DNA of 29,865 bases from NCBI GenBank assembly GCA_964553355.1, contig CAZKKJ010000002.1, positions 1 to 29,865 of the forward strand, in the 5' to 3' direction. The stretch comes from an uncultured Candidatus Saccharibacteria bacterium (GTDB taxonomy: Bacteria > Patescibacteriota > Saccharimonadia > Saccharimonadales > AWTP1-31). The position numbers and the translations under genes were made by a program. The notes under the pieces are model-generated. The model was given only the letters and a program-made list of their open reading frames with translations. It was not told the DNA's origin and ran no database searches. Below are positions 2,564-27,594 of the stretch, one piece after another (positions within the stretch are counted from its first letter, which is position 1; each line of letters opens with the position of its first letter).

Positions 2564-5500
2564 GTGAAGTCAAAAAGAGTGGTAAATTTATCGATGCCGG
2601 ACCGTATAGCCAGGCAGCCTAAGCATATTAGGAGTATGTTGGCTGTATTTGGTGTTGTGACCGTCGGTGTTTTTGTGTACTACTTGGCTTCGCTGTTACC
2701 GATGTTTAGTTCTGCCGCAAGTCCTACGCTAACAACCGGCGGTGCATCAAATATCGGACGCACCACTGTCAAGCTTACAGGGGACACGACTTCCAATGGC
2801 GGGAGCGAAGTCACCGAGTGGGGTTTCCAGTATGGTACTACCACTGGATATGGCACAACTGCTTCAGAAACACAAAAGCCCTACGCATTTGCTAGCAAGA
2901 TCGGTGGACTAGGCACGAACGATGGTGAGTTTACAAATCCATATGGCGTTGCTTTCGACAGTACCGGCAATATGTATGTGGTGGACGCAACAAACAACCG
3001 TATACAGAAGTTCGATAGTAATGGGAACTTTATTACTAAGTGGGGTTCTAGTGGTAGTGGTGACGGCCAATTCAGTGGCGCTTACCATATAGCCCTCGAT
3101 AGCTCAGATAACGTATTCGTGGTTGATATGTACAACGCACGTGTTCAGAAATTTAACAGCAGTGGAACATTCATTAGCAAGTTTGGGACACAAGGTTCTG
3201 GAGACGGCCAGTTCAGTAGCCCAAGCGGAATTGTCATAGATAGTTCAAATAATATCTACGTCGCCGACAGATCAAACCAGCGTATCCAAAAATTCAACAG
3301 TAGCGGTGTATTTATCACCAAGTGGGGGTCATTGGGCGATGCCGATGGACAATTCCGTAATCCAACTTCACTTGCTTTGGACGGAAGCGGCAATATATAC
3401 ATTGGAGCGACCAGGATAATCCATAAGTACACAACTAGTGGAGTATTTGTTACAAAATGGGGAAGTGCCGGTACTGGCAATGGTCAATTCAACGGCGTCC
3501 ACGATTTAAAAGTAGATGGCTCGGGTAATATTGTTGCACTGGACGGATTTAATTACCGAGTACAGATATTCGACAGTAGCGGTACCTACCTAAGTCAGTG
3601 GGGTGAACGCGGCGACAATGACGGCCAGTTCCAAATTCCTTATGGTCTGGCGATTCGCAATAACGACATATACATAGCCGACAACTCTGACCGTGTACAA
3701 AAGTTTAGCCCGTACTCGCAGGCTGGCACCTATACGATAAGCATTACGGGGTTAACCTGTGGCACTACCTATCACTACCGAGCATTCGCAACGAATATAG
3801 ACGGTACCAGTTATGGTGACGATGCAACATTCGACACATTTGGCTGTGCGCCAGTTCTGGACATTTCTACCAGTTATTCTCAAGACATCACACAGTACGA
3901 TGCACGAGTCCGGGCCACTATAAACGAGGGTAGTAGCATAGCTACATCCAAGGGCTTTCAGTATGGCACTACCACCAGCTATGGCCAAACTAAATCAGTA
4001 CCCGTGCAAGAAGAGTATAAATACAAATCCTCGATTGGCAGTGTCGGCACGGGAGATGGACAGTTCCAGCAAGCCCGCAATTTTGCCTTTGACTCAGCCG
4101 GAAATATGTATGTGGCTGACACCTACAATGACCGTATCCAAGTATTTAACCCAGCCGGTAGTTACGTTAGTCAGTGGGGAGTTTCGGGTTCTGGCCCGGG
4201 TCAATTAACCGAGCCAGCGCACATTGCCATTGGGCCAGATAACACTGTGTATATAGCGTATGGATCTGCTTCCGAAAAGGTTCAGCGCTTTACAGTTAAT
4301 GGGACATACCTTGGAGCCTGGGGCACATTTGGTTCGGGTAATGGAGAATTTAGTGACATTGGCTATATAGCCGTAGATTCTACCGGTAACGTATATGTAG
4401 CAGATCTTGGCAACTATCGCATCCAGAAGTTTACAAGTACAGGTTCGTTTATAACCAAATGGGGCAGTTTTGGTTCTGGTGATGGCCAGTTTACGCAAGT
4501 TAAAGGAATTGATTTTGACTCATCAGACAACGTTTATGTTTTGGACTACAATACACCTAGAGTCCAAAAATTTAACAGCAGTGGAACATTCATTAGTAAG
4601 TTTGGTAGCCTGGGATCAGGGGATGGTCAGTTCTCTTTTCCTGCGGACATTACAATTGACGATCAGAACAATATATTTGTATTAGACGCTGGCAATCGAC
4701 GTGTCGTTAAGTTTGATCCTAGCGGCAATTATATAACTAAATTTTCTCGAGATGGTGCGAGCACAGGTGAGCTTGAGCTGTCTACGGCCATTGGAGTAAA
4801 AGCTGACGGTGTGGTATATGTTGCAGACACAGCAAAAAGTAAAATCATATCCTTTGAGACAGTTAATCAAGATACCCCATTCTTCTTGCCAATAAGTGGG
4901 CTTACTTGCAATACGACTTATCACTATCGAGCTTTCTTGGCCAATGGCACCGACACAGATTACGGTATTGATAATACGTTTACCACTGATGCTTGTCCTA
5001 CGGCTCCGGGTGTTACCACAAACATTAGTACTGGCTTGACCCAGACTACCGCTACATTAAACGGACGAATCGACAGTCTAAAAAGTACCGTGTCCAGTCG
5101 TGGCTTTAGGTTTGGTACAACCGATAGTTATGGTCAAACATTCCCAGAGGCAGTTACGCATAATATTAACTACACCAGCGTATTGCAGACTAGCGACATG
5201 CAGTCTCCATCTGACAACTTCCCACGAGACATTGCCAGAGACTTAGCTGGAAATATGTATGTTATAGAGTGGGGAGGGGGTAACCCTCAAGTTGAAAAAT
5301 TCGACAGTAACGGTAACTTTATTACAAAGTGGGGGAGTTACGGTACAGGTGATGGTCAATTTAGTCTCCCCGATAGTATAGAAGTAGACGCAGCTAATCG
5401 GGTGTATGTAGCTGACGCGGTAAATGGGAATATTCAAAAGTTTGACAGTAACGGCAATTTCATATCCAAGTGGGGCACTATAGGCTCTGGCATGGGAGAG

Positions 5501-8500
5501 TTTGGACGCCATGGTCTAATTGATATGCGGCTTGCTATTGACTCACAGTACAATATTTATGTTTCAGAACTTGGCTCAACTCCTAATGATGGAACACCAA
5601 TCCACCGAGTACAGAAGTTTACGAATACTGGTACGTACTTGGGCCAGTGGGGAGGCATCGGTACTGGGAACGGCACCCTGACATTAAATTCTGCAGCTGA
5701 TATTGCGATTGATGACGATGACTATGTTTACATTGTTGACGATAATGGCACCAACCCTGTAGTAAAGAAGTTTGATGTTGATGGAAATTACATTACAGAG
5801 TGGGGTTCTGTAGGTAGTGCCGATGGACAATTTGGCGAGACCAGCAATGTGCGATACATAGACATTGATTCTAATAATGACGTTTTTGTCGCGGAGATCT
5901 CTGGTCCCAACCGAGTGCAAAAGTTTGACCGTTATGGAAACTTCTTGACTAAGTTTGGCTCATCTGGCTCAGGTAATGGCCAGCTGAATTGGCCAAGTGG
6001 CATGATATTTAAGAACGATAGTACCATTGTTGTTAGTGATCACTTGAATAACAGGCTGCAGTTGTTTAACTACGAAACTGTTAGTGATTCGTTTACTAAG
6101 AACCTGACTGGCTTAACCTGCGGCACCACCTACCATTACCAGGCGTATGCGACCAACGGAGTAGGAACCGAATATGGCAGCGACCAAACCTTTACTACCG
6201 ACGCGTGTCCACAACAGACCGATTTTGCACTCGAGAAAACTATGACCAATGCTGTTCCAGTTAACTCTGGTGATGATGTAAATTACCACTTCAAGATTAC
6301 AAATGTAGGGGCAAGTAGCGCATCATACAGCGGTCAGTTTACCGATGTGCTGCCTGCCGAATTTACTCTTAATAACGATTACTTCGATACGCTTAACAAC
6401 GCTCAGGTTAGTTGTGTGGACGGTGGCTTGGCAGAAGAAAGTGGCGATGCTTATCTTGCCGGTCAATATGCAGGTCATCATGTCGTGGGTTGTAATATCG
6501 ATGCAGGGTTGGACGAGCTTGCACCAGGTGAATTTATAGAGTTTGACCTAAGTGGTGCCGCCAATGCCAACTACACCAACGCGAGCACTAAAAACCGATC
6601 GTTGTACTACACATCTCTTGATAACGAAGACGATGTGCTAACCGATGTAGAGAATGCAATTGCTGCCAATCAGGATATGTTCGAACTTGCGACGAACAAC
6701 GTTAGCACCCACACGTATAGTTTTGTTGCCAATACCGCCCCAGTTGTTGCAATTGTTAACCCAGACGAAGATCAACAGTTCAATCAAGGAGAGGTAATTA
6801 ATCTGGCAGCCGAAGCGAGTGACTCGGATGGAACAATTACAGAAGTAGAGTTCTATCTGAACAGTCAACTTGTAGGTAGTGTTAGCTCTCAGCCGTACGA
6901 AATTCAGGCCAGTGGTTTGGCTCCTGGTGTATACACCGTAGTAGCGCGGGCAATTGACAATGACGGTGCAGCTACTAGTTCTGCGGTAGTCAACTTTACG
7001 GTAGTTGCAGTTGACCCTTCTGTTACAACCGTTTCTGCAACGAGCGTAAACAAAACCAGTGCAATCTTGAACGGCGATGTGACGGTTATAGGCAGCACGC
7101 CTCTCACGCAACGTGGTTTTCAGTACGGCACAACCACTTCCTATGGCTCAACCGTTGGTAATGCGACTAGCCAAACTGGCGCGTACAGTGTCTCGGTCTC
7201 TGGATTAACCTGTGGCACTACCTATCATTACCGAGCAATCGCTACTAATACTTCCGGAACGGGATATGGCGTAGATAAGACCTTCACGACGTCTGTTTGC
7301 CCAGCTCCGCCAACGGTAGTTATTACTGCGCCAACAAATAATCAAGTATTTGGAGCCAAAACTACCAGTGTTAGCCTGGCAGCCGTAGCAACCTCGCTAA
7401 CGAGCGAGATAGCTCGAGTTGAGTTCTTTGTTGATGGAGCATACGTGGGTACAGTTGTAGATTCTCCGTATACCATGGACGCTCTTGGCTTGAGTGTAGG
7501 GCAGCATATCCTAGAAACCAAGGCCTACGATGTTCTTGGAGCCACTGCAGAAGCCGTACCGGTACCGTTCTACGTTGCACCACCAACCGGAAATCCAGCA
7601 GTTGATAACCCGCCAACAACTCCGCCCGTAACTACACCCCCTGCAGCTACGCCTACTGTTCCGACAGATGCTAACAATACTTCTGGAGAGGGTATTAAGC
7701 TAGAGAAAAAGGATGGCTTTAGCCGAACTAACGTGGCCGGTCGTACGTGGGTTGATGCGGTCTTTGCTCATAAAGTCTTTAGCGTTGTCCCATGGATCCT
7801 CATCTTGTTACTTCTCATTCTTGCAGCCGCATATGCCTATCGAGCACGCAGAGAGTACGTGCTCCGTAAGCAAATCATTCAGACGCTTGGTCGCTACCAG
7901 AAGACATTAGATGCCACTGATAACTACCTGGCATTAACTGCTCACCACCTTAATACACCTCTGGCTATTATGAATGGTTCTGCAGAACTGGTGGTCGCTA
8001 AAAAAGCCTTACCAACATCAGTTACAACTCATGCTCAGGCTAAGCTCAAAGACTTCTCTATAGCTATAGGCCAAGTTTTGTCGGCCAACCAGGTGTCCGA
8101 GGCCGAGCTTAAGCGCGACCAGCAACAGGCAACCGCTCACGATATCCAACCTCGATCCAAAAATCCTCTAAAAGATAGAGCAGTGTGGCTGCCCATGGTT
8201 GTTGTCTTTGGTTGTCTTGTGTTGGCAAACCTATTGTTTATCCGAGTTGGAGTGCTGAGTAATGGGTGGGTGCGCATGCTTATCGAGTTCGGATTGTTCG
8301 TCCTTACCTGTGTACTGCTTGTCCTGTCCTATATGTACCACAACAAAGCAGAGGCCTTTAAGCTACTTAGCCAGCAGCAGCTGGCTGCACAGGGCAGATT
8401 GATGACTCGTCGCAGACAGTTCATTGCTGACGCTCACCAGACTCTTAACAAACATCTCGAAGATCTTAAACTATCCGGCGCACGATTTGCCGAAGTAGAA

Positions 8501-9103
8501 CAAGGCAAACTCTACCAAAATGGTCTGGCTATGTTGCAGGAACTGGTCGGGGGCATGAATCTGATATATAACACTACAAATATGACCTCCCAGGCACCAT
8601 TATTAGCGGTTGGCCCTATACTAGAACAAAACATCAAGAACCTCGAATCATTTGCACAAAGTAAGCACGTCCAACTGTCTAACTCGTCACAGCCAAACAT
8701 GAGCGTTCACGTACCTGCCGAAGCCCTTAGTCAGCTACTTCATTCAACAATTCATAATGCAATCAAGTTCAGTAAAGAGAATGGCCTGGTTAAGATTGCT
8801 GGCACGCGACGTGGCAAGAAGCTAATTATGACGGTTACCGATACTGGCGTTGGAATTTCAAAGGACAAGCTCGACAAACTCTTCCAACCGTTTACAAGAG
8901 CAACCGACACCGAAACATTCGACTACGATGGCCTGGGCTTGAACTTGTACATCAACAAGGTTATTCTGGCTCGCCTAGGGGGCGACATCCACATCAAGAG
9001 CACAAGCAACAAGGGAACCAAGGTCACCGTTACGCTACCCGAGGCAAACAAGGACGAATCATTAGTTGCCCCTGCCATGATTTTCCCCACAGTCTCTTCC
9101 TAG
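2564..9103 (+). CDS. Giant surface protein: signal/TM, 3x (FN3-like domain with inserted NHL propeller), DUF11-like, Ig-like x2, FN3, Pro/Thr linker, 3 TMs, two His-box-like helices, HATPase_c domain
   Basis: About 18 NHL repeats (P.GIA.DS.GN.YV.D..N.RIQKF...G.FI.KWG..G.GDGQF). FN3-like GFQYGTTT.YG and GLTCGTTYHYRA.ATN motifs. AHHLNTPL His box, HNAIKF N box, DTGVG G1 box, LFQPF F box, GLGL G2 box. Confidence 0.9.
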   Translation: MKSKRVVNLSMPDRIARQPKHIRSMLAVFGVVTVGVFVYYLASLLPMFSSAASPTLTTGGASNIGRTTVKLTGDTTSNGGSEVTEWGFQYGTTTGYGTTASETQKPYAFASKIGGLGTNDGEFTNPYGVAFDSTGNMYVVDATNNRIQKFDSNGNFITKWGSSGSGDGQFSGAYHIALDSSDNVFVVDMYNARVQKFNSSGTFISKFGTQGSGDGQFSSPSGIVIDSSNNIYVADRSNQRIQKFNSSGVFITKWGSLGDADGQFRNPTSLALDGSGNIYIGATRIIHKYTTSGVFVTKWGSAGTGNGQFNGVHDLKVDGSGNIVALDGFNYRVQIFDSSGTYLSQWGERGDNDGQFQIPYGLAIRNNDIYIADNSDRVQKFSPYSQAGTYTISITGLTCGTTYHYRAFATNIDGTSYGDDATFDTFGCAPVLDISTSYSQDITQYDARVRATINEGSSIATSKGFQYGTTTSYGQTKSVPVQEEYKYKSSIGSVGTGDGQFQQARNFAFDSAGNMYVADTYNDRIQVFNPAGSYVSQWGVSGSGPGQLTEPAHIAIGPDNTVYIAYGSASEKVQRFTVNGTYLGAWGTFGSGNGEFSDIGYIAVDSTGNVYVADLGNYRIQKFTSTGSFITKWGSFGSGDGQFTQVKGIDFDSSDNVYVLDYNTPRVQKFNSSGTFISKFGSLGSGDGQFSFPADITIDDQNNIFVLDAGNRRVVKFDPSGNYITKFSRDGASTGELELSTAIGVKADGVVYVADTAKSKIISFETVNQDTPFFLPISGLTCNTTYHYRAFLANGTDTDYGIDNTFTTDACPTAPGVTTNISTGLTQTTATLNGRIDSLKSTVSSRGFRFGTTDSYGQTFPEAVTHNINYTSVLQTSDMQSPSDNFPRDIARDLAGNMYVIEWGGGNPQVEKFDSNGNFITKWGSYGTGDGQFSLPDSIEVDAANRVYVADAVNGNIQKFDSNGNFISKWGTIGSGMGEFGRHGLIDMRLAIDSQYNIYVSELGSTPNDGTPIHRVQKFTNTGTYLGQWGGIGTGNGTLTLNSAADIAIDDDDYVYIVDDNGTNPVVKKFDVDGNYITEWGSVGSADGQFGETSNVRYIDIDSNNDVFVAEISGPNRVQKFDRYGNFLTKFGSSGSGNGQLNWPSGMIFKNDSTIVVSDHLNNRLQLFNYETVSDSFTKNLTGLTCGTTYHYQAYATNGVGTEYGSDQTFTTDACPQQTDFALEKTMTNAVPVNSGDDVNYHFKITNVGASSASYSGQFTDVLPAEFTLNNDYFDTLNNAQVSCVDGGLAEESGDAYLAGQYAGHHVVGCNIDAGLDELAPGEFIEFDLSGAANANYTNASTKNRSLYYTSLDNEDDVLTDVENAIAANQDMFELATNNVSTHTYSFVANTAPVVAIVNPDEDQQFNQGEVINLAAEASDSDGTITEVEFYLNSQLVGSVSSQPYEIQASGLAPGVYTVVARAIDNDGAATSSAVVNFTVVAVDPSVTTVSATSVNKTSAILNGDVTVIGSTPLTQRGFQYGTTTSYGSTVGNATSQTGAYSVSVSGLTCGTTYHYRAIATNTSGTGYGVDKTFTTSVCPAPPTVVITAPTNNQVFGAKTTSVSLAAVATSLTSEIARVEFFVDGAYVGTVVDSPYTMDALGLSVGQHILETKAYDVLGATAEAVPVPFYVAPPTGNPAVDNPPTTPPVTTPPAATPTVPTDANNTSGEGIKLEKKDGFSRTNVAGRTWVDAVFAHKVFSVVPWILILLLLILAAAYAYRARREYVLRKQIIQTLGRYQKTLDATDNYLALTAHHLNTPLAIMNGSAELVVAKKALPTSVTTHAQAKLKDFSIAIGQVLSANQVSEAELKRDQQQATAHDIQPRSKNPLKDRAVWLPMVVVFGCLVLANLLFIRVGVLSNGWVRMLIEFGLFVLTCVLLVLSYMYHNKAEAFKLLSQQQLAAQGRLMTRRRQFIADAHQTLNKHLEDLKLSGARFAEVEQGKLYQNGLAMLQELVGGMNLIYNTTNMTSQAPLLAVGPILEQNIKNLESFAQSKHVQLSNSSQPNMSVHVPAEALSQLLHSTIHNAIKFSKENGLVKIAGTRRGKKLIMTVTDTGVGISKDKLDKLFQPFTRATDTETFDYDGLGLNLYINKVILARLGGDIHIKSTSNKGTKVTVTLPEANKDESLVAPAMIFPTVSS
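3149..4596 (+). repeat. Identical 29-nt segment in propellers 1 and 2 (3149-3177 and 4568-4596)
   Basis: AAATTTAACAGCAGTGGAACATTCATTAG occurs at both positions. Confidence 0.9.
3752..7237 (+). repeat. Near-identical 33-nt segment in two FN3-like domains (3752-3784 and 7205-7237)
   Basis: TTAACCTGTGGCACTACCTATCA[C/T]TACCGAGCA, 32/33 identical. Confidence 0.85.
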
Positions 9104-9256: not shown

Positions 9257-9583
9257 ATGACAAACGAAGTATCAGGAGAACAACTACGTAGAGACGCTGC
9301 CCGTCGCGGTTTTGTTATGGCCGCAGTCTCTATCGGTAGTCGAATATTACCGGATAGTATTACAACACCTCTGGGTCGTATGAACCCACTCGCCGTTGAC
9401 CGCCATAACCGTAATCAACAAGCAGCGGTTGAACAGCGTATCGAAGGTCTAAAAATAATGCTCGAGGCAGCTGAAGCTTTAGGCGAGATTGCCCCAGTTG
9501 CAGAAGCCCCTCGAGACGTTAGTCGTGTAGATGCTGCACTCATTGTTGATCACACGGCTCCAGACATTAAGTCTTGGGACTAG
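9257..9583 (+). CDS. Hypothetical protein (108 aa)
   Basis: Purine-rich SD (GAAGGGAGAG), upstream promoter, plausible composition. No recognised family. Confidence 0.6.
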   Translation: MTNEVSGEQLRRDAARRGFVMAAVSIGSRILPDSITTPLGRMNPLAVDRHNRNQQAAVEQRIEGLKIMLEAAEALGEIAPVAEAPRDVSRVDAALIVDHTAPDIKSWD

Positions 9584-9709: not shown

Positions 9710-10152
9710 TTACGACTTATACCAGTTGAACTGATTCGCAGTATGTTTCTTGTGGCAGTTAGCGCAAAGTATCCTGCACTTGGCAATTTCTGCGAGTGTT
9801 GCTTCCCAGGAGTATCCATCCCTAAGGGCAGTAGCAATGCCAAATGATTTCAGACTAGGGTCAAGATGATCAAATTCCAAAACTCGATTATCTGACTCTG
9901 CACATTGCACACATTGTTTATCAGATAGATATTCAATCATTTTTAATCGAAATTGACGTTTATATTCTTTTTGTCTTAATCTTGCCCTTTGTCGGTAGCT
10001 GTCTCTTTGCAACTCATAGTGATGCCTATATGTCCGAATCCTTTGTGTCTTGTAGCATGTCTTGCATGTGTGTGCAGACGGCCAGAAGTGCTATCTTTAA
10101 TATAGTAATCACCCTCTGGCTTTTCATGATTGCATTTACTACAGACCCTCAT
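9710..10152 (-). pseudogene. HNH endonuclease with N-terminal Cys zinc finger, frameshifted at about 10066-10074
   Basis: MRVCSKC...RLHT in one frame continues as CKTCYKTQRIRTYRHHYELQRD... in another. The C-terminus has CVQC..LEFDH...CRILCANCH. The shift falls at a (CA)4 tract. Confidence 0.85.
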
Positions 10153-11889: not shown

Positions 11890-14947
<3,058 letters not shown>

Positions 14948-18070: not shown

Positions 18071-19270
18071 CTAGGTATCAAATAGGTCGGTGTCGGCTAG
18101 CTCAGGTGGCAAAAAGCCTTTGTTGTGCAGGAAGTTAGCTTCCCACTTGTAGTCTTTTCCATAGCCCAGGTCTTTCATGAGCTTGGTGGGTGCGTTGCGC
18201 AGCTGCAGCGGAATGGGCAGATCTGGATAGTCACGAGCTAAACCTTGGGCGGCCATCATGGCGTTAGATACTTCGCGGGACTTTGGCGCTTTGGCTAAGA
18301 CTGTAGCACAGTGGAATAGATTGTACTGAGCCTCGGGCATACCAATCTGGGTTACCGCCTGAAAGGTACTTACCGCTAAGTTGAGTGCTGCAGGTGCGGC
18401 GAGACCAATGTCCTCAGAAGCAAAGATCACCATCCTCCGGGCGACAAACTTGGGATCTTCGCCAGCTTGCAGAATGCGTGCCATATAGTACAGTGCTGCA
18501 GTGGCTTGGCTACCGCGCAGTGATTTAATAAAAGCACTGATCAAGTTGTAGTGGTTCTCGCCGTTCTTATCGTACCCCGGCACTCGTCGCTGGGCTGCAG
18601 TTTGGACGATCTCTTTAGTAATGGTTTTAATGCCAGCTAACTGATGAGCGACTTCTAAGTTTCCCAGAGCTACTCGTCCGTCACCACCAGACAACTCTGC
18701 AAGCAAATCCAGGCTGGTCGCTGGAAGTCGTTTAGTAGGAATTCTTAGCTGTTTGGCAGCTCGTTGTAATAGCACCGTAACTTCTTCTTTGGTGAGTGGC
18801 TCCAATATGACCACTCGGCTACGACTCAGTAAGGGGGTAATTATCTCGAAGCTGGGGTTTTCGGTGGTGGCACCAATAAGAGTAATGGTGCCGCGCTCGA
18901 CATGTGGTAAAAACGCATCTTGCTGAGCTTTGTTAAAGCGGTGGATCTCGTCCACAAACAGCAGTGTAGGGATTTGCAGGCGGGCGTTTTGTTCGGCATG
19001 TTCAATAACCTTACGGACATCTGCTACACCAGAAGTAACGGCGCTCAACTCTATCCAATCCGATCCGGTCTCGCGGGCAATAATTCGGGCTAGGGTTGTC
19101 TTACCTGTCCCTGGTGGTCCCCATAAAATTAAACTAACGGGTTTCTTGCTGGTTACGATTTGCCGAAGTAAGCCACTTGGGCCAACTAAGTGCTGTTGGC
19201 CAATTACCTCATCGAGCGTCTGCGGACGAAGCTGTTCTGCTAAAGGTTGGCTACTATTTTGTTCGGACAT
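18071..19270 (-). CDS. rarA: Replication-associated recombination protein A (MgsA/RarA AAA+ ATPase)
   Basis: PLAEQLRP..L, GPPGTGKTT, FVDEIHRFNKAQQDAFLP, GATTENPSF, SEDIGLA, LRNAPTKLMKDLGYG. Confidence 0.95.
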   Translation of the reverse strand: MSEQNSSQPLAEQLRPQTLDEVIGQQHLVGPSGLLRQIVTSKKPVSLILWGPPGTGKTTLARIIARETGSDWIELSAVTSGVADVRKVIEHAEQNARLQIPTLLFVDEIHRFNKAQQDAFLPHVERGTITLIGATTENPSFEIITPLLSRSRVVILEPLTKEEVTVLLQRAAKQLRIPTKRLPATSLDLLAELSGGDGRVALGNLEVAHQLAGIKTITKEIVQTAAQRRVPGYDKNGENHYNLISAFIKSLRGSQATAALYYMARILQAGEDPKFVARRMVIFASEDIGLAAPAALNLAVSTFQAVTQIGMPEAQYNLFHCATVLAKAPKSREVSNAMMAAQGLARDYPDLPIPLQLRNAPTKLMKDLGYGKDYKWEANFLHNKGFLPPELADTDLFDT

Positions 19271-19323
19271 GCCCTAAGTATACCTGGCGTGGCCAAAGAG
19301 TCAGGGTAGGGTACAATAGAGAC

Positions 19324-20229
19324 ATGCCAAAAACAGACTCTTCTCAAATAAGTTCCGAAAAACCATTTATTGTTACTCATACACCACTCGTGCTAGTTGG
19401 GATCGGCCTGGTGCTACTAGCCCTGTTCGGTAGTTTGTGGTGGACTAAGGTCCACGACAGTCCCCGTAATGTATTTGCCGATATGTTGGCCAACAACTTA
19501 TCTACAGCAAGCGTCACGCGCAGCAGTAGCTCTACTGGTCAGCAGGGCTTTGAACGAGTTGAGCAACTGAGCTTTACACCAACCGCCACCACCCGAAGTT
19601 ATGTAAAGGTAAGTCAAGAATCCGAGCAGGGCAAGACAACCGTCAAAACCGAGACTATTGGTACCATAACTAACGACTACAGCAGGTATCTAAATATTGA
19701 TGTGGCTCCAAGCGGTGGTCAGGCGGCACCAAACTACCGATCGGTAGAGAACATCTGGGCTAAGTCCTCATTGGTAGAAGGCCAACCTCAATACTTAAGC
19801 CAGTCAATGCAGGGGCTCATTCCGTTCGCAAACCTTAACGCAAGTAAGCGTCAAGAAATAATCAAGCTCATCCAAGACAAAAAGATTTATAAAGTAAATT
19901 ATGCTTCCTCAAAACCCAAACGACTTAACGGTAAATCAGCTATCGATTTTTCCGTGAGCGTAGATCCTGTGCAGTATATCGAACTACTAAAAGCTTTAAA
20001 TAAAGCCGTTGGCGTAGACGTACAAGGACTGAACTCAGACGAATACAAGGGGCAGCCGCCCATTAGCCTGAGTGTGGTCGTAGACAAGCTTTCCCGACAT
20101 GTTTTACAGGTCACCTACGGCCAGCAAAAAGAAGTCTTTAGCGCCTATGGTCTGACCCAACCCATCACCATCCCCGAGCAAACAGTTTCCGTCCAAGAGC
20201 TTCAACAAAAAATTCAAATGGCGCAGTAA
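19324..20229 (+). CDS. Single-pass membrane protein with large extracytoplasmic domain
   Basis: TM (LVLVGIGLVLLALFGSLWW). Start reassigned to ATG 19324 because the longer ORF overlaps rarA and TACAAT lies just upstream of this ATG. Confidence 0.75.
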   Translation: MPKTDSSQISSEKPFIVTHTPLVLVGIGLVLLALFGSLWWTKVHDSPRNVFADMLANNLSTASVTRSSSSTGQQGFERVEQLSFTPTATTRSYVKVSQESEQGKTTVKTETIGTITNDYSRYLNIDVAPSGGQAAPNYRSVENIWAKSSLVEGQPQYLSQSMQGLIPFANLNASKRQEIIKLIQDKKIYKVNYASSKPKRLNGKSAIDFSVSVDPVQYIELLKALNKAVGVDVQGLNSDEYKGQPPISLSVVVDKLSRHVLQVTYGQQKEVFSAYGLTQPITIPEQTVSVQELQQKIQMAQ

Positions 20230-24423: not shown

Positions 24424-26916
24424 ATGAAGCGATACAATCCTAAGGACATCGAGCCCAAGTGGCAAAAAATCTGGCAAGAGACTGGCGTCTACACCACCAA
24501 TTTGAATAGTGACAAGCCAAAATACTTTGGTTTTAGCATGTTCAACTACCCCAGTGGTTCGGGCATTCACGTGGGGCACGCCATGAACTACACCATTTCC
24601 GATGTAAAGTCACGCTTTAAGCGTCAACAAGGTTACGAAAGCTACCACCCAGTAGGCTGGGATGCTTTTGGTTTGCCTGCCGAAAACTATGCCATTAAGG
24701 CTGGTGTATCCCCGCAAGAAAGTATGGCTACTATTATTCCAAGCTACCATAAGCAGTATCAAGCTATGGGGTGGAGTAACGACTGGGAGAAAGAGATCAG
24801 TACTCATTTGCCCGAATACTACAAATGGACCCAATGGATCTTTGTAAAAATGCACGAGCATGGTTTGGCCTACCAAGACAGCCGCTGGCAGTGGTGGTGC
24901 ACAAAATGCCAGACAGTGCTAGCCAACGAGCAAGTGATCGACGGTAAGTGTTGGCGCCATGACGGCAAAGACGACCCACAGGTCGAAAAGAAAGAAGTTA
25001 AGCAGTGGTTTTTCAAGATCACCGATTATGCTGATGAGCTGTTGGAAGCCACCGATGCATTGGATTGGACACCCAGCGTAAAGCTGGCCCAAAAGAACTG
25101 GATAGGTCGCAGTGAAGGCATCAACATCGACTACGAAGTAGTTGGTACCAACAAGAAACTAACATGTTTTACGACTACTCCCGTAAACTACGGAATGACC
25201 TTTATTGTAGTGGCGCCCGAGCATGACATGGTACCGGAGCTAACCACTCATGAACAAAAGAAAATTGTAGAAGAGTATGTAAAGAAAAGCATCTTAAAAT
25301 CTAGTATCGAACGCCAGCAAGAAGGTAAGGCCAAAACCGGTGTCTTTACTGGTTCGTATGCTTTAAACCATGTGACTGGCGAGCAAGTTCCTATTTGGGT
25401 AGCAGACTTCGTGCTCGCCGAGTTCGGTACTGGCGCAGTACAAGGCTGTCCAGCTCATGACGAACGTGATTTTGAGTTTGCACAGAAGTTTGACCTCCCA
25501 ATTATTCGAGTGGTAGAGGGTGTAAATGGCGAAACTAGTAGGATTGTAGATCCAAAGAAAGAATCCGTGGATCAGGTCAAGCTTAACCATGGCATTAAGC
25601 GTAAAATGATAAACTCTGAGCAATTCAATGGACTTCTTTTTGACGATGCAATGCAGAGAACAATGGATTATTTCGAAGAACAAAACTGGGGTACGCGTAT
25701 AGTCAACTATCGCATGCGCGACTGGAGCATCAGCCGCCAGCGCTATTGGGGTGCACCTATTCCTGTAGTCAACTGCCCAGACTGTGGGCCAGTGGTTTTA
25801 GGCGAAGAGTCTCTACCGGTTATATTGCCAGAGCTTACCGACTTTGCGCCAAGTGGCGATGGCCGCAGTGCCTTGGCTCGAGCCGAAGACTGGCTCAAGA
25901 CCACTTGTCCTAAGTGTGAGGGTCCAGCAGAGCGCGAAACAGACACAATGGACACCTACGTGTGCAGTAGTTGGTATATGTTCCGATATCTTGATCCTCG
26001 TAATCAAGAACAAATTTTTGATAGTAAGATAGCTAATCAATGGCTACCTGTTGGCTTTTACAACGGCGCCGACCATGCAACCGCTCATTTACTATATGCT
26101 CGCTTTATTACGAAGTTCTTTAAGAAAATTGGTCTAGTGGACGTGGACGAGCCGTTTAGTCAGATGCTATACAACGGTAAGGTTACCGCAAAAGACGGAA
26201 GTGCTTTTAGTAAAACGCTTGGCAATGGCCCAGATCCACTAGATATTATAGATCAGGGCTATGGTGCCGACGCGCTTCGAACTTACTTAATGTTTGCTGC
26301 TCCTTTAGAGCTTGGCGTACGTTGGGACGAGCAAGGCGTGCCTGGCGCGCACCGTTTCTTATCTCGCGCCTGGAATATAACCCAAGAATACCTAGAGGCT
26401 AAAGAAGTTTCTTTAGACAAGACACAGGTTAAGCAAGTTCTTTCAATCACGCACAAGGCAGCCAAAAAGATCACTCAAGATCTAGAAGAGAATCGCTACA
26501 ACACCGCTATTGCCGCCAGCATGGACGCGGTAAACAAGTTATATCTTGTTAAAAATAAAGTTCCTTTTGGCAAAAGTGATGCTTGGCAAGAAGCACTCGA
26601 ATCCATCGCTATGCTAATTGGTCCGTTTGCTCCGCACATTAGTGAAGAGCTGTGGCAGCAGCTTGGTCATAGCGATACGATCCACCAAGATCACTGGCCC
26701 GAGTGGCAAGACGAATATCTAACAGAAGACACCATTACCTTAGTAGTACAGGTCAACGGCAAAGTACGTGCCCAGTTGCAGGTTGCTGCAGACATTTCGA
26801 AAGAAGATGCTATCGAAGCAGCCAAGCAAGACGAGAACGTTACAGCTCATTTGGGAGGCAAAGAAATCCGCAAAGAGATTTTCGTCCCCGGTAAACTTGT
26901 TAACCTAGTAGTCTAA
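24424..26916 (+). CDS. leuS: Leucine--tRNA ligase
   Basis: YPSG..HVGH (HIGH), GWDAFGLPAEN, QKNWIGRSEG, GTGAV..PAHDERD, SRQRYWG.PIP, HLLYARF, C-terminal VQVNGKVR. Confidence 0.97.
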   Translation: MKRYNPKDIEPKWQKIWQETGVYTTNLNSDKPKYFGFSMFNYPSGSGIHVGHAMNYTISDVKSRFKRQQGYESYHPVGWDAFGLPAENYAIKAGVSPQESMATIIPSYHKQYQAMGWSNDWEKEISTHLPEYYKWTQWIFVKMHEHGLAYQDSRWQWWCTKCQTVLANEQVIDGKCWRHDGKDDPQVEKKEVKQWFFKITDYADELLEATDALDWTPSVKLAQKNWIGRSEGINIDYEVVGTNKKLTCFTTTPVNYGMTFIVVAPEHDMVPELTTHEQKKIVEEYVKKSILKSSIERQQEGKAKTGVFTGSYALNHVTGEQVPIWVADFVLAEFGTGAVQGCPAHDERDFEFAQKFDLPIIRVVEGVNGETSRIVDPKKESVDQVKLNHGIKRKMINSEQFNGLLFDDAMQRTMDYFEEQNWGTRIVNYRMRDWSISRQRYWGAPIPVVNCPDCGPVVLGEESLPVILPELTDFAPSGDGRSALARAEDWLKTTCPKCEGPAERETDTMDTYVCSSWYMFRYLDPRNQEQIFDSKIANQWLPVGFYNGADHATAHLLYARFITKFFKKIGLVDVDEPFSQMLYNGKVTAKDGSAFSKTLGNGPDPLDIIDQGYGADALRTYLMFAAPLELGVRWDEQGVPGAHRFLSRAWNITQEYLEAKEVSLDKTQVKQVLSITHKAAKKITQDLEENRYNTAIAASMDAVNKLYLVKNKVPFGKSDAWQEALESIAMLIGPFAPHISEELWQQLGHSDTIHQDHWPEWQDEYLTEDTITLVVQVNGKVRAQLQVAADISKEDAIEAAKQDENVTAHLGGKEIRKEIFVPGKLVNLVV

Positions 26917-27470
26917 AGTCTAGAATCACACTCTTTTGGAACGACGTAGATGCCAGGTCGTACGTCGTCAGGATTTGGACTGTCGGTATCGTAGTTTATA
27001 CCAACTAAATCAGCATTATCCAAGTTGTCGGCAATAGTGTCGATAACTTTTGTTATGGGAGTATTTTCGTGTGGAATTTGTCGAGCTAGATCAGTCAAGT
27101 CACCGCCGGAATGCAGTTCCATATTTTGTTCACCACTACATGCAAAATGGTTATCTGCTAGCGCTGAACCGGTGTAGGTTGCTGCCATGCTGCCTGCCAT
27201 GGTTATGGCTGCCAGCCCGCCCCAAACACGCCGTGCGACATGTGCATGACGAGAATTCTTGTAGGCATTTCGTCTCAAAGATGACAGGTGATCTTCTAGG
27301 CCATCATTGGCGTTTAGCAGATCAACTGCCTTGCCAGCTGTTGTCATGGCAAAAGCACCAAATCTTTCGAATCTAGAAAGACGAGGCATTATGTGTTGCT
27401 TGCGCTCATTGATAACAATTTGGTCACGCTCTTTTGTAAAAGCTCTAACGGTATTACCTGATGTTTTCAT
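26913..27470 (-). CDS. Hypothetical membrane-anchored protein, possible LysM-like C-terminal domain
   Basis: Start reassigned to ATG 27470 because the upstream extension lies within a perfect promoter. One hydrophobic segment ending ALA-D, then a Cys-bounded domain with GGDLTDLA...VRPGIYVVP. Confidence 0.6.
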   Translation of the reverse strand: MKTSGNTVRAFTKERDQIVINERKQHIMPRLSRFERFGAFAMTTAGKAVDLLNANDGLEDHLSSLRRNAYKNSRHAHVARRVWGGLAAITMAGSMAATYTGSALADNHFACSGEQNMELHSGGDLTDLARQIPHENTPITKVIDTIADNLDNADLVGINYDTDSPNPDDVRPGIYVVPKECDSRL

Positions 27471-27479
27471 AATCAGGCA

Positions 27480-27508
27480 ATTATAGCAATAAGGGGCATA
27501 AATGTCAA
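27480..27508 (-). promoter_or_regulatory. Consensus sigma70 promoter
   Basis: TTGACA-N17-TATAAT with TG extended -10 on the minus strand. Confidence 0.85.
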
Positions 27509-27520
27509 TACCTGTTATGC

Positions 27521-27549
27521 TTGCCATCAGAGGTAGCATAAGGTATACT
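27521..27549 (+). promoter_or_regulatory. Sigma70 promoter for rpmF
   Basis: TTGCCA-N17-TATACT, divergent from the previous promoter. Confidence 0.7.
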
Positions 27550-27594
27550 TTGTCTAACTTTATTAACATAATTTAACAGGAGTTCTGTTTTTCT

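Follow-up and report, generated by a model that had tools for sequence, protein, structure and literature searches.

How could a histidine kinase work when its best phospho-acceptor box is separated from its ATPase domain by two membrane helices and a further helical hairpin? This question is raised by a gene in a stretch of 29,865 nucleotides (nt), called the window below, which is contig CAZKKJ010000002.1 (C2) of an uncultured Candidatus Saccharibacteria bacterium; the source assembly comprises 733 kb in 98 contigs and is ~83% complete. Histidine kinases are textbook obligate dimers. For the product of this gene, a giant surface sensor kinase of 2179 amino acids (aa), we lean towards a different arrangement: a working histidine kinase whose transmitter is split across the membrane and which forms a single-chain pseudo-dimer with one His and one ATPase. 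Judging by the structure predictions, a single chain probably takes the place of the usual dimer.

Layout and conservation of the split transmitter

Residues are numbered from the GTG start of the open reading frame 2564-9103. A database representative with 100% identity (P0122) is 2169 aa long, which fits a start at the ATG located 10 codons downstream of the GTG. The N-terminus contains a signal anchor or signal peptide (residues 26-45), and the ectodomain of ~1690 aa consists of three NHL propellers, Big_7 Ig domains, and fn3-like domains (Pfam). At the C-terminus, the first transmembrane segment (TM1), the H1794 hairpin, a variable linker, TM2/TM3, the H1958 hairpin, and an intact ATPase domain follow one another. 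The gene and the elements of this C-terminal module are as follows.

2564..9103, + strand: whole gene, encoding the 2179-aa giant surface sensor kinase
7775..7834, + strand: TM1, residues 1738-1757; peak Kyte-Doolittle (KD) hydropathy 2.83; within helix 5-71 of the AlphaFold2 (AF2) model
7835..7999, + strand: helix alpha1 of hairpin 1, with a HisKA-type H-box and the predicted phospho-acceptor H1794
8015..8137, + strand: helix alpha2 of hairpin 1, residues 1818-1858; AF2 helix 94-134, followed by the variable linker to TM2
8177..8329, + strand: membrane hairpin TM2/TM3, residues ~1872-1895 and ~1902-1922; KD 2.42 and 2.37
8330..8575, + strand: hairpin 2, with alpha3 continuous with TM3 and alpha4 leading into the ATPase domain
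8594..9058, + strand: catalytic and ATP-binding (CA) domain (HATPase_c), with N2065 (nt 8756-8758), G1 box DTGVGI, F-box, G2 box YDGLGL, and G3 box GT

An initial annotation, made from the DNA letters alone, had proposed this order of TM1, two further membrane segments, two His boxes, and an ATPase, and hydropathy and motif positions agree with it. Conservation was counted in an alignment of 206 modules. The TM2/TM3 hairpin, for which the annotation had asked whether nt 8185-8340 are transmembrane at all, is hydrophobic at the KD values listed and conserved in 206/206 homologues; its loop of ~6 residues lies outside, and its two segments correspond to model helices 148-171 and 178-247. TM1 keeps its hydrophobicity in 203/203 scorable homologues. 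The 17-residue KD maxima of the three segments have medians of 2.3-2.4 and a minimum of 1.4 across the 206 homologues, so the segments are not a chance feature, and P1877 at the start of TM2 is kept in 172 sequences. By the positive-inside distribution, the two hairpins are cytoplasmic, as is the ATPase, in agreement with the annotation's prediction. His box 1 lies 37 residues past TM1 and box 2 lies 35 residues past TM3, with zero indels in 206/206 sequences; the linker between alpha2 and TM2, by comparison, varies from 18 to 46 residues. The fixed spacings and the variable linker therefore point to two rigid helices held in register and joined by a slack tether, and the sequence data fit a picture in which both would descend from the membrane to equal depth.

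A conserved amphipathic juxtamembrane segment (nt 7700-7775; consensus G.K..L...P...A.SIPY) lies outside, directly ahead of TM1, and in the AF2 model forms a helix that runs on into TM1. The segment may couple the ectodomain stalk to TM1.

Could the layout be an artefact, with a mis-assembly or frameshift having fused two kinase genes or fragments? The metagenome-assembled genome (MAG) is fragmented. However, the frame 2564-9103 runs uninterrupted with zero stops, and the same element order with indel-free spacing is found in 206 independent sequences from many assemblies, which leaves such an origin with a negligible probability.

Hairpin 1 contains the H-box YLALTAHHLNTPLAIMNGSAEL, in which H1794 occupies nt 7943-7945. 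This column holds His in 194 of the 206 modules, and the 12 sequences that lack it are all short proteins, including nine stand-alone paralogues of 414-458 aa from related genomes. A profile of the hairpin matches the dimerization and histidine phosphotransfer (DHp) domain of HK853 at E 2.2e-6 with both helices covered, and 50 of 60 family members match Pfam HisKA at E<=0.01 (best 1.1e-8); the window copy alone scores under the Pfam cut-off (12-18 bits vs 26.9). As judged from these sequence comparisons, hairpin 1 is a genuine HisKA DHp and H1794 its conserved candidate phospho-acceptor. The H-box follows a family signature, H-Y-L-x-T-P (nt 7943-7963 and family alignment), with the Thr at H+4 kept in 187/206 sequences and an acidic residue 14 positions past the His (E1808) in 197/206. 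The residue directly after the His is Tyr in 183/206 sequences and His in the window copy, whereas typical HisKA proteins have an acidic Glu or Asp there, and catalysis may be atypical for this reason.

The CA domain lies ~215 residues away from H-box 1, separated from it by the alpha2 linker, TM2, TM3, and hairpin 2. It matches Pfam HATPase_c at E 1.8e-20, and in the AF2 model it resembles the CA domains of VanS, WalK, and ThkA (VIA Z ~20). N2065 and G2095 are invariant (206/206), D2093 is present in 200/206 sequences, and the N, G1, F, and G3 boxes as a whole are essentially invariant. The first Gly of the G2 box, whose absence had already been pointed out for this copy, is replaced by an aromatic residue or Gln throughout the family (Y 108, H 49, and Q 16 of 206).

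These features bear on one of three alternatives raised by the initial annotation, which had suggested an intramolecular pseudo-dimer, a His-to-His relay, or a pseudokinase scaffold. Under the last of these, the module would bind ATP or partners without autophosphorylation, and the H-box would be a relic. The missing acidic residue after the His and the replaced Gly of the G2 box are compatible with this, a group of short paralogues did lose the His, and neither the window nor the 1.5-kb surroundings of 29 homologous loci contain a receiver domain, so that a nearby cognate response regulator is lacking. On the other hand, the acceptor His is retained inside a strongly conserved H-Y-L-x-T-P box together with the N, G1, F, and G3 motifs, which therefore indicates purifying selection on exactly the catalytic set, and HWE/HisKA_2 kinases are active although they, too, lack the acidic residue. 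We regard a pseudokinase as improbable for this protein; it may apply to the separate group of short paralogues.

The hairpin adjacent to the CA domain has a different character. Its box 2 (FIADAHQTL) includes H1958 (nt 8435-8437), but this column holds His in only 6/206 sequences and otherwise small residues (A 69, S 44, G 21, T 17), so that the CA-adjacent hairpin is His-less in 200/206 modules. The remaining H-box residues are missing, none of the 60 family members matches Pfam HisKA in this region, and a hairpin-2 profile gave zero significant kinase matches among PDB sequences. Hairpin 2 retains only an R..F(I/L)..A motif and, within alpha4, a Gly that hardly varies (G1987). Both histidines occur together in the window copy and in four other homologues (P0159, P0218, P0182, and P0230), and one short paralogue (L069, G013:C5) has a His at box 2 only. 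The rare members with a box-2 His often read FI.DAH, and this His may be a relic of, or a reversion to, the canonical acceptor position.

A His-to-His relay, in which the ATPase would phosphorylate the adjacent H1958 and the phosphoryl group would pass on to H1794, or the reverse, would draw on the presence of both histidines in these five proteins and on their similar depth below the membrane in the window copy. The conservation counts (6/206 against 194/206), the degenerate surroundings of box 2, and a profile register in which H1958 may lie one residue ahead of the position equivalent to the acceptor His nevertheless make a relay very unlikely. On sequence grounds, H1958 of the window copy is best described as incidental or as the remnant of a His in an ancestor, not as a second acceptor. 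The view of a better His box remote from the ATPase and a degenerate one next to it thus holds family-wide, and of the two histidines whose conservation was to be checked, H1794 alone is a family feature. Of the further description of the module as a duplicated TM-helix-His unit, the order of the elements is confirmed, and the second His is a rare variant. A duplication origin of the two hairpins is possible: profile-profile comparison (hhalign) aligned them weakly, in the expected register (P 0.014-0.018), and the F(I/L)..A motif common to both, like the FI.DAH variants seen now and then, is no more than suggestive.

Predicted structure and proposed mechanism

AF2 modeling of the full module including the ATPase, based on an alignment of 69 sequences, produced a confident and compact monomer with a predicted local distance difference test score (pLDDT) of 90.8 (87.6-90.8 over five models) and a predicted template modeling score (pTM) of 0.86. 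TM1 and alpha1 form one continuous helix in this model, as do TM3 and alpha3. A pTM of 0.86 would be out of reach if hairpin 1, which makes up about one fifth of the chain, could move freely against the rest of the model. A second prediction without the CA domain (residues 1733-2008; 139 sequences) reached a pLDDT of 86.4 and a pTM of 0.70, with top confidence in the membrane-distal halves of both hairpins.

The best structural matches of the CA-less model are single-chain four-helix bundles, aligned over model residues 35/50-276. They include Maquette-3 (171 residues aligned), a ROP dimer re-engineered as a single chain (1yo7; 119/120 residues, root-mean-square deviation (rmsd) 2.4 A), a designed single-chain bundle (117/118 residues), and the bundle domains of BCKDK and PDK2. 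The full model can be overlaid on canonical DHp-CA structures in two ways. In the first, the region from H1794 (model 66-70) to residue 438 aligns with KinB, CusS, VicK, and AdeS over ~200 residues at rmsd 3.3-3.8 A; in the second, the alignment runs from alpha3 (205-230) to 438 and includes DivL (Z 20.8), ZraS, HK853, and CpxA. These two modes fit what would be expected of a dimer-like four-helix core with a single ATPase, and the H1794 helix is predicted to lie against the ATPase as in canonical kinases. Among the fold-cluster representatives of AFDB, none spans the whole module (TM by query <=0.43), and matches cover only TM3, hairpin 2, and CA. At the level of prediction, the intramolecular pseudo-dimer proposed at the outset is thus the alternative that agrees with the AF2 model, the single-chain bundle matches, and the DHp-CA overlays, and the other two find no support for this protein.

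As sequence and homologues show, H1794 sits on a HisKA-type hairpin (alpha1/alpha2) hanging directly from TM1, TM2 and TM3 then take the chain out across the membrane and back in, and the His-less hairpin that descends next (alpha3/alpha4) carries the only ATPase domain. In the AF2 model, alpha1-alpha4 are predicted to form one intramolecular antiparallel four-helix bundle beneath a three-helix membrane bundle, such that a single chain, having one His and one ATPase, would mimic the central part of a canonical kinase dimer. If both hairpins share one bundle, the ATPase of hairpin 2 would phosphorylate the His of hairpin 1 in a hard-wired, ‘trans-like’ reaction. In this division of labor, the substrate His would come from hairpin 1 and both scaffold and ATPase from hairpin 2, and the membrane hairpin would act as a covalent link that keeps the two halves side by side. 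We further propose that TM1 and alpha1 behave as a rigid helix tied to the giant ectodomain, with TM2/TM3 and alpha3/alpha4 as a membrane-anchored stator. A ligand or contact force on the ectodomain might then displace or turn alpha1 relative to the stator and in this way control whether the ATPase can reach H1794, with no need for receptor dimerization, and the phosphoryl group could pass to an unlinked response regulator; the source genome encodes 7 receiver domains and ~7 canonical HisKA kinases. More tentatively, and with doubts that outweigh our confidence, the module may be a natural, obligately monomeric kinase with hard-wired asymmetry, used by Saccharibacteria as a portable output with which giant monomeric surface proteins of up to ~4400 aa would signal host contact across the membrane without dimerizing.

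The alternative that deserves most attention is a homodimer with two separate bundles. Hairpins 1 and 1' would form a His-bearing DHp, hairpins 2 and 2' a bundle resembling CheA P3, and the ATPase would reach across. Canonical HisKA kinases are obligate dimers, and CheA has a His-less hairpin before its CA domain and its His on a separate domain. Moreover, the two hairpins lie at the same membrane depth, which makes side-by-side bundles geometrically possible, and a monomer AF2 run is blind to such an arrangement. A prediction with two copies scored 0.00, below the mark, and weighs neither for nor against it. What argues against two bundles is that AF2 confidently packs both hairpins together within one chain in both runs, with single-chain bundles as the closest matches. 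We judge the homodimer to be unlikely, yet a substantial competitor.

Several points weigh against the single-chain pseudo-dimer as a whole, besides the non-acidic residue after the His and the missing neighboring regulator. The structural evidence consists of prediction, with the packing of the bundle read from pTM and structural-alignment ranges, and a monomer model leaves room for a homodimer. The bundle matches describe the geometry of the model, not homology, and Z scores of 10-12 are common for helical bundles. Exploratory mean-field direct coupling analysis of the 206 modules was noisy (effective number of sequences (Neff) 163): its top pair couples residue 1791 of H-box 1 with 2119 of the ATP lid, and the pair 1791-1998 joins alpha1 to alpha4, but many implausible pairs between TM segments and CA also rank high.

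Distribution, paralogues, and genomic setting

All 25 genomes searched from the same family encode the full module (query 17-454). A single genome can have as many as about ten paralogues, and most family copies form the C-terminal part of open frames 1200-2900 aa in length. Within the same order, the module is also present in four further families. A profile search across the phylum (300 sampled genomes, including one unpublished genome, G213, on which nothing said here depends) did not set full modules apart from CA-only matches by its E-value limit of 1e-30, and match coverage alone was used. It detected full modules additionally in one family of another class (f52), where G069, G122, and G190 encode full-length modules at E 1e-90 to 1e-100 against the family profile. 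Most sampled families of the phylum lack a full module, and this patchy distribution suggests transfer or loss.

An exhaustive search of 1.84 billion representatives returned 240 clusters (50% identity) at E<=1e-30; of the 150 clusters listed, almost all span the whole module, with protein lengths of 267-4413 aa. A length-limited homologue search with a fragment recovered P0002 as the sole full-module relative. A degenerate DNA pattern for ITTHYLNTP had 17 matches in 185,579 species genomes, 16 of them in Saccharibacteria-type records (titled Candidatus Saccharibacteria, Saccharimonas, Saccharimonadota, or MAG). The other match, in Portnoybacteria, was rejected as a chance hit with zero tblastn similarity. 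The ectodomains of members vary and contain NHL, Big domains, DUF285, or no recognizable domain; the module is therefore a portable output domain.

Two further copies of the module are present in the source genome (G000).

G000 contig C7:11184-12485 (L002:1468-2796), - strand: 442-aa stand-alone paralogue, His-less in both boxes (ITSLPL; ADTGQKL)
G000 C49:3-734, - strand, and C41:3-828, + strand (L003, L004): third copy, split over two contig ends

The C7 paralogue retains the N and G1 boxes, and its orthologues in 8 other genomes likewise lack the first His. In 9/9 genomes, genes of this type are arranged head-to-head with an OmpR-type response regulator and a canonical HisKA kinase, and in 7/9 a CorA gene lies on the other side. 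These proteins may be His-less accessories or pseudokinases for the adjoining two-component system. In the third copy, the two contig ends share the overlapping sequence SLYLLAVLLLALAYRYR, and there is an internal run of N. Its ectodomain is short (~50 aa), box 1 (TTHYISTPV) has the His, and Ile occupies the box-2 position.

The genes neighboring the kinase gene are housekeeping genes (psd/pssA, LemA, M48 peptidase, ligA, murF, ddl, and leuS). The window also contains open frames in the 100-350-aa range with zero Pfam matches at 9257-9583 (+), 11890-12894 (+), 19177-20229 (+), and 26913-27569 (-), and another frame of this class at 9710-10012 (-) with a weak HNH match only.

Comparison with known systems

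We found no published description of the split layout in the literature on Saccharibacteria histidine kinases, monomeric kinases, tandem DHp domains, and giant NHL proteins of Patescibacteria. Saccharibacteria are ultra-small, and the cultured ones live attached to host bacteria; to our knowledge, almost nothing is known about their signaling. In Saccharibacteria, giant surface proteins of a large and expanded set share the module as their output; these proteins are plausible sensors of host or surface contact. If the proposed arrangement is correct, it would provide a route for transmembrane signaling without receptor dimerization. The asymmetry of dimer halves and cis versus trans phosphorylation have been studied mostly with engineered heterodimers, and a naturally occurring chain in which one His and one ATPase have fixed positions would be a ready-made system for such questions.

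The module shares with class I HisKA kinases (HK853, EnvZ, CpxA, WalK/VicK, KinB, and CusS) a HisKA H-box on a two-helix hairpin and a GHKL ATPase with N, G1, F, G2, and G3 boxes, and its predicted helix-to-ATPase geometry overlays on theirs at rmsd 3.3-5 A. It differs from them in that its His-bearing DHp is not adjacent to CA but is followed by a linker, two TMs, and a His-less hairpin, in that a single chain, with one His and one CA, is predicted to build the whole four-helix core, and in the Tyr after the His and the altered G2 box. The class II kinase CheA likewise has its His on a unit apart from CA and a His-less hairpin (P3) directly before CA. However, only the CA domains match (Z ~15): in CheA, which is soluble and has no membrane hairpin, the His is located on an HPt four-helix bundle (P1) and P3 homodimerizes, whereas the His unit of the module is HisKA-like and P5 is absent.

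Single-chain proteins offer further parallels. Mitochondrial PDK/BCKDK resemble the model in that one chain forms a four-helix bundle and, after it, a GHKL ATPase (3tz0 and 6lil; Z 16.5-16.7 against the full model and 9.6-10.5 against the bundle alone), but they are Ser kinases without an acceptor His and are not membrane-embedded, and we claim no evolutionary link. EL346, a kinase of the HWE/HisKA_2 family, works as a monomer with DHp-like helices packed intramolecularly (PMC10359499), and its structure (4r3a) is among the structural matches of the full model. Its hairpin, however, packs on a LOV sensor domain and not on a second hairpin, and the protein is soluble and belongs to another H-box family.

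Finally, intramembrane-sensing kinases of the BceS/LiaS type have the same topology as the C-terminal half of the module, with TM2, a short loop, TM3, a hairpin, and CA. BceS (8g3a_D) aligns with model residues 142-446 over 294 residues, at a poor rmsd of 13 A. BceS keeps its own His and dimerizes, whereas the corresponding half of the module is His-less and fused behind a CA-less TM-DHp unit.

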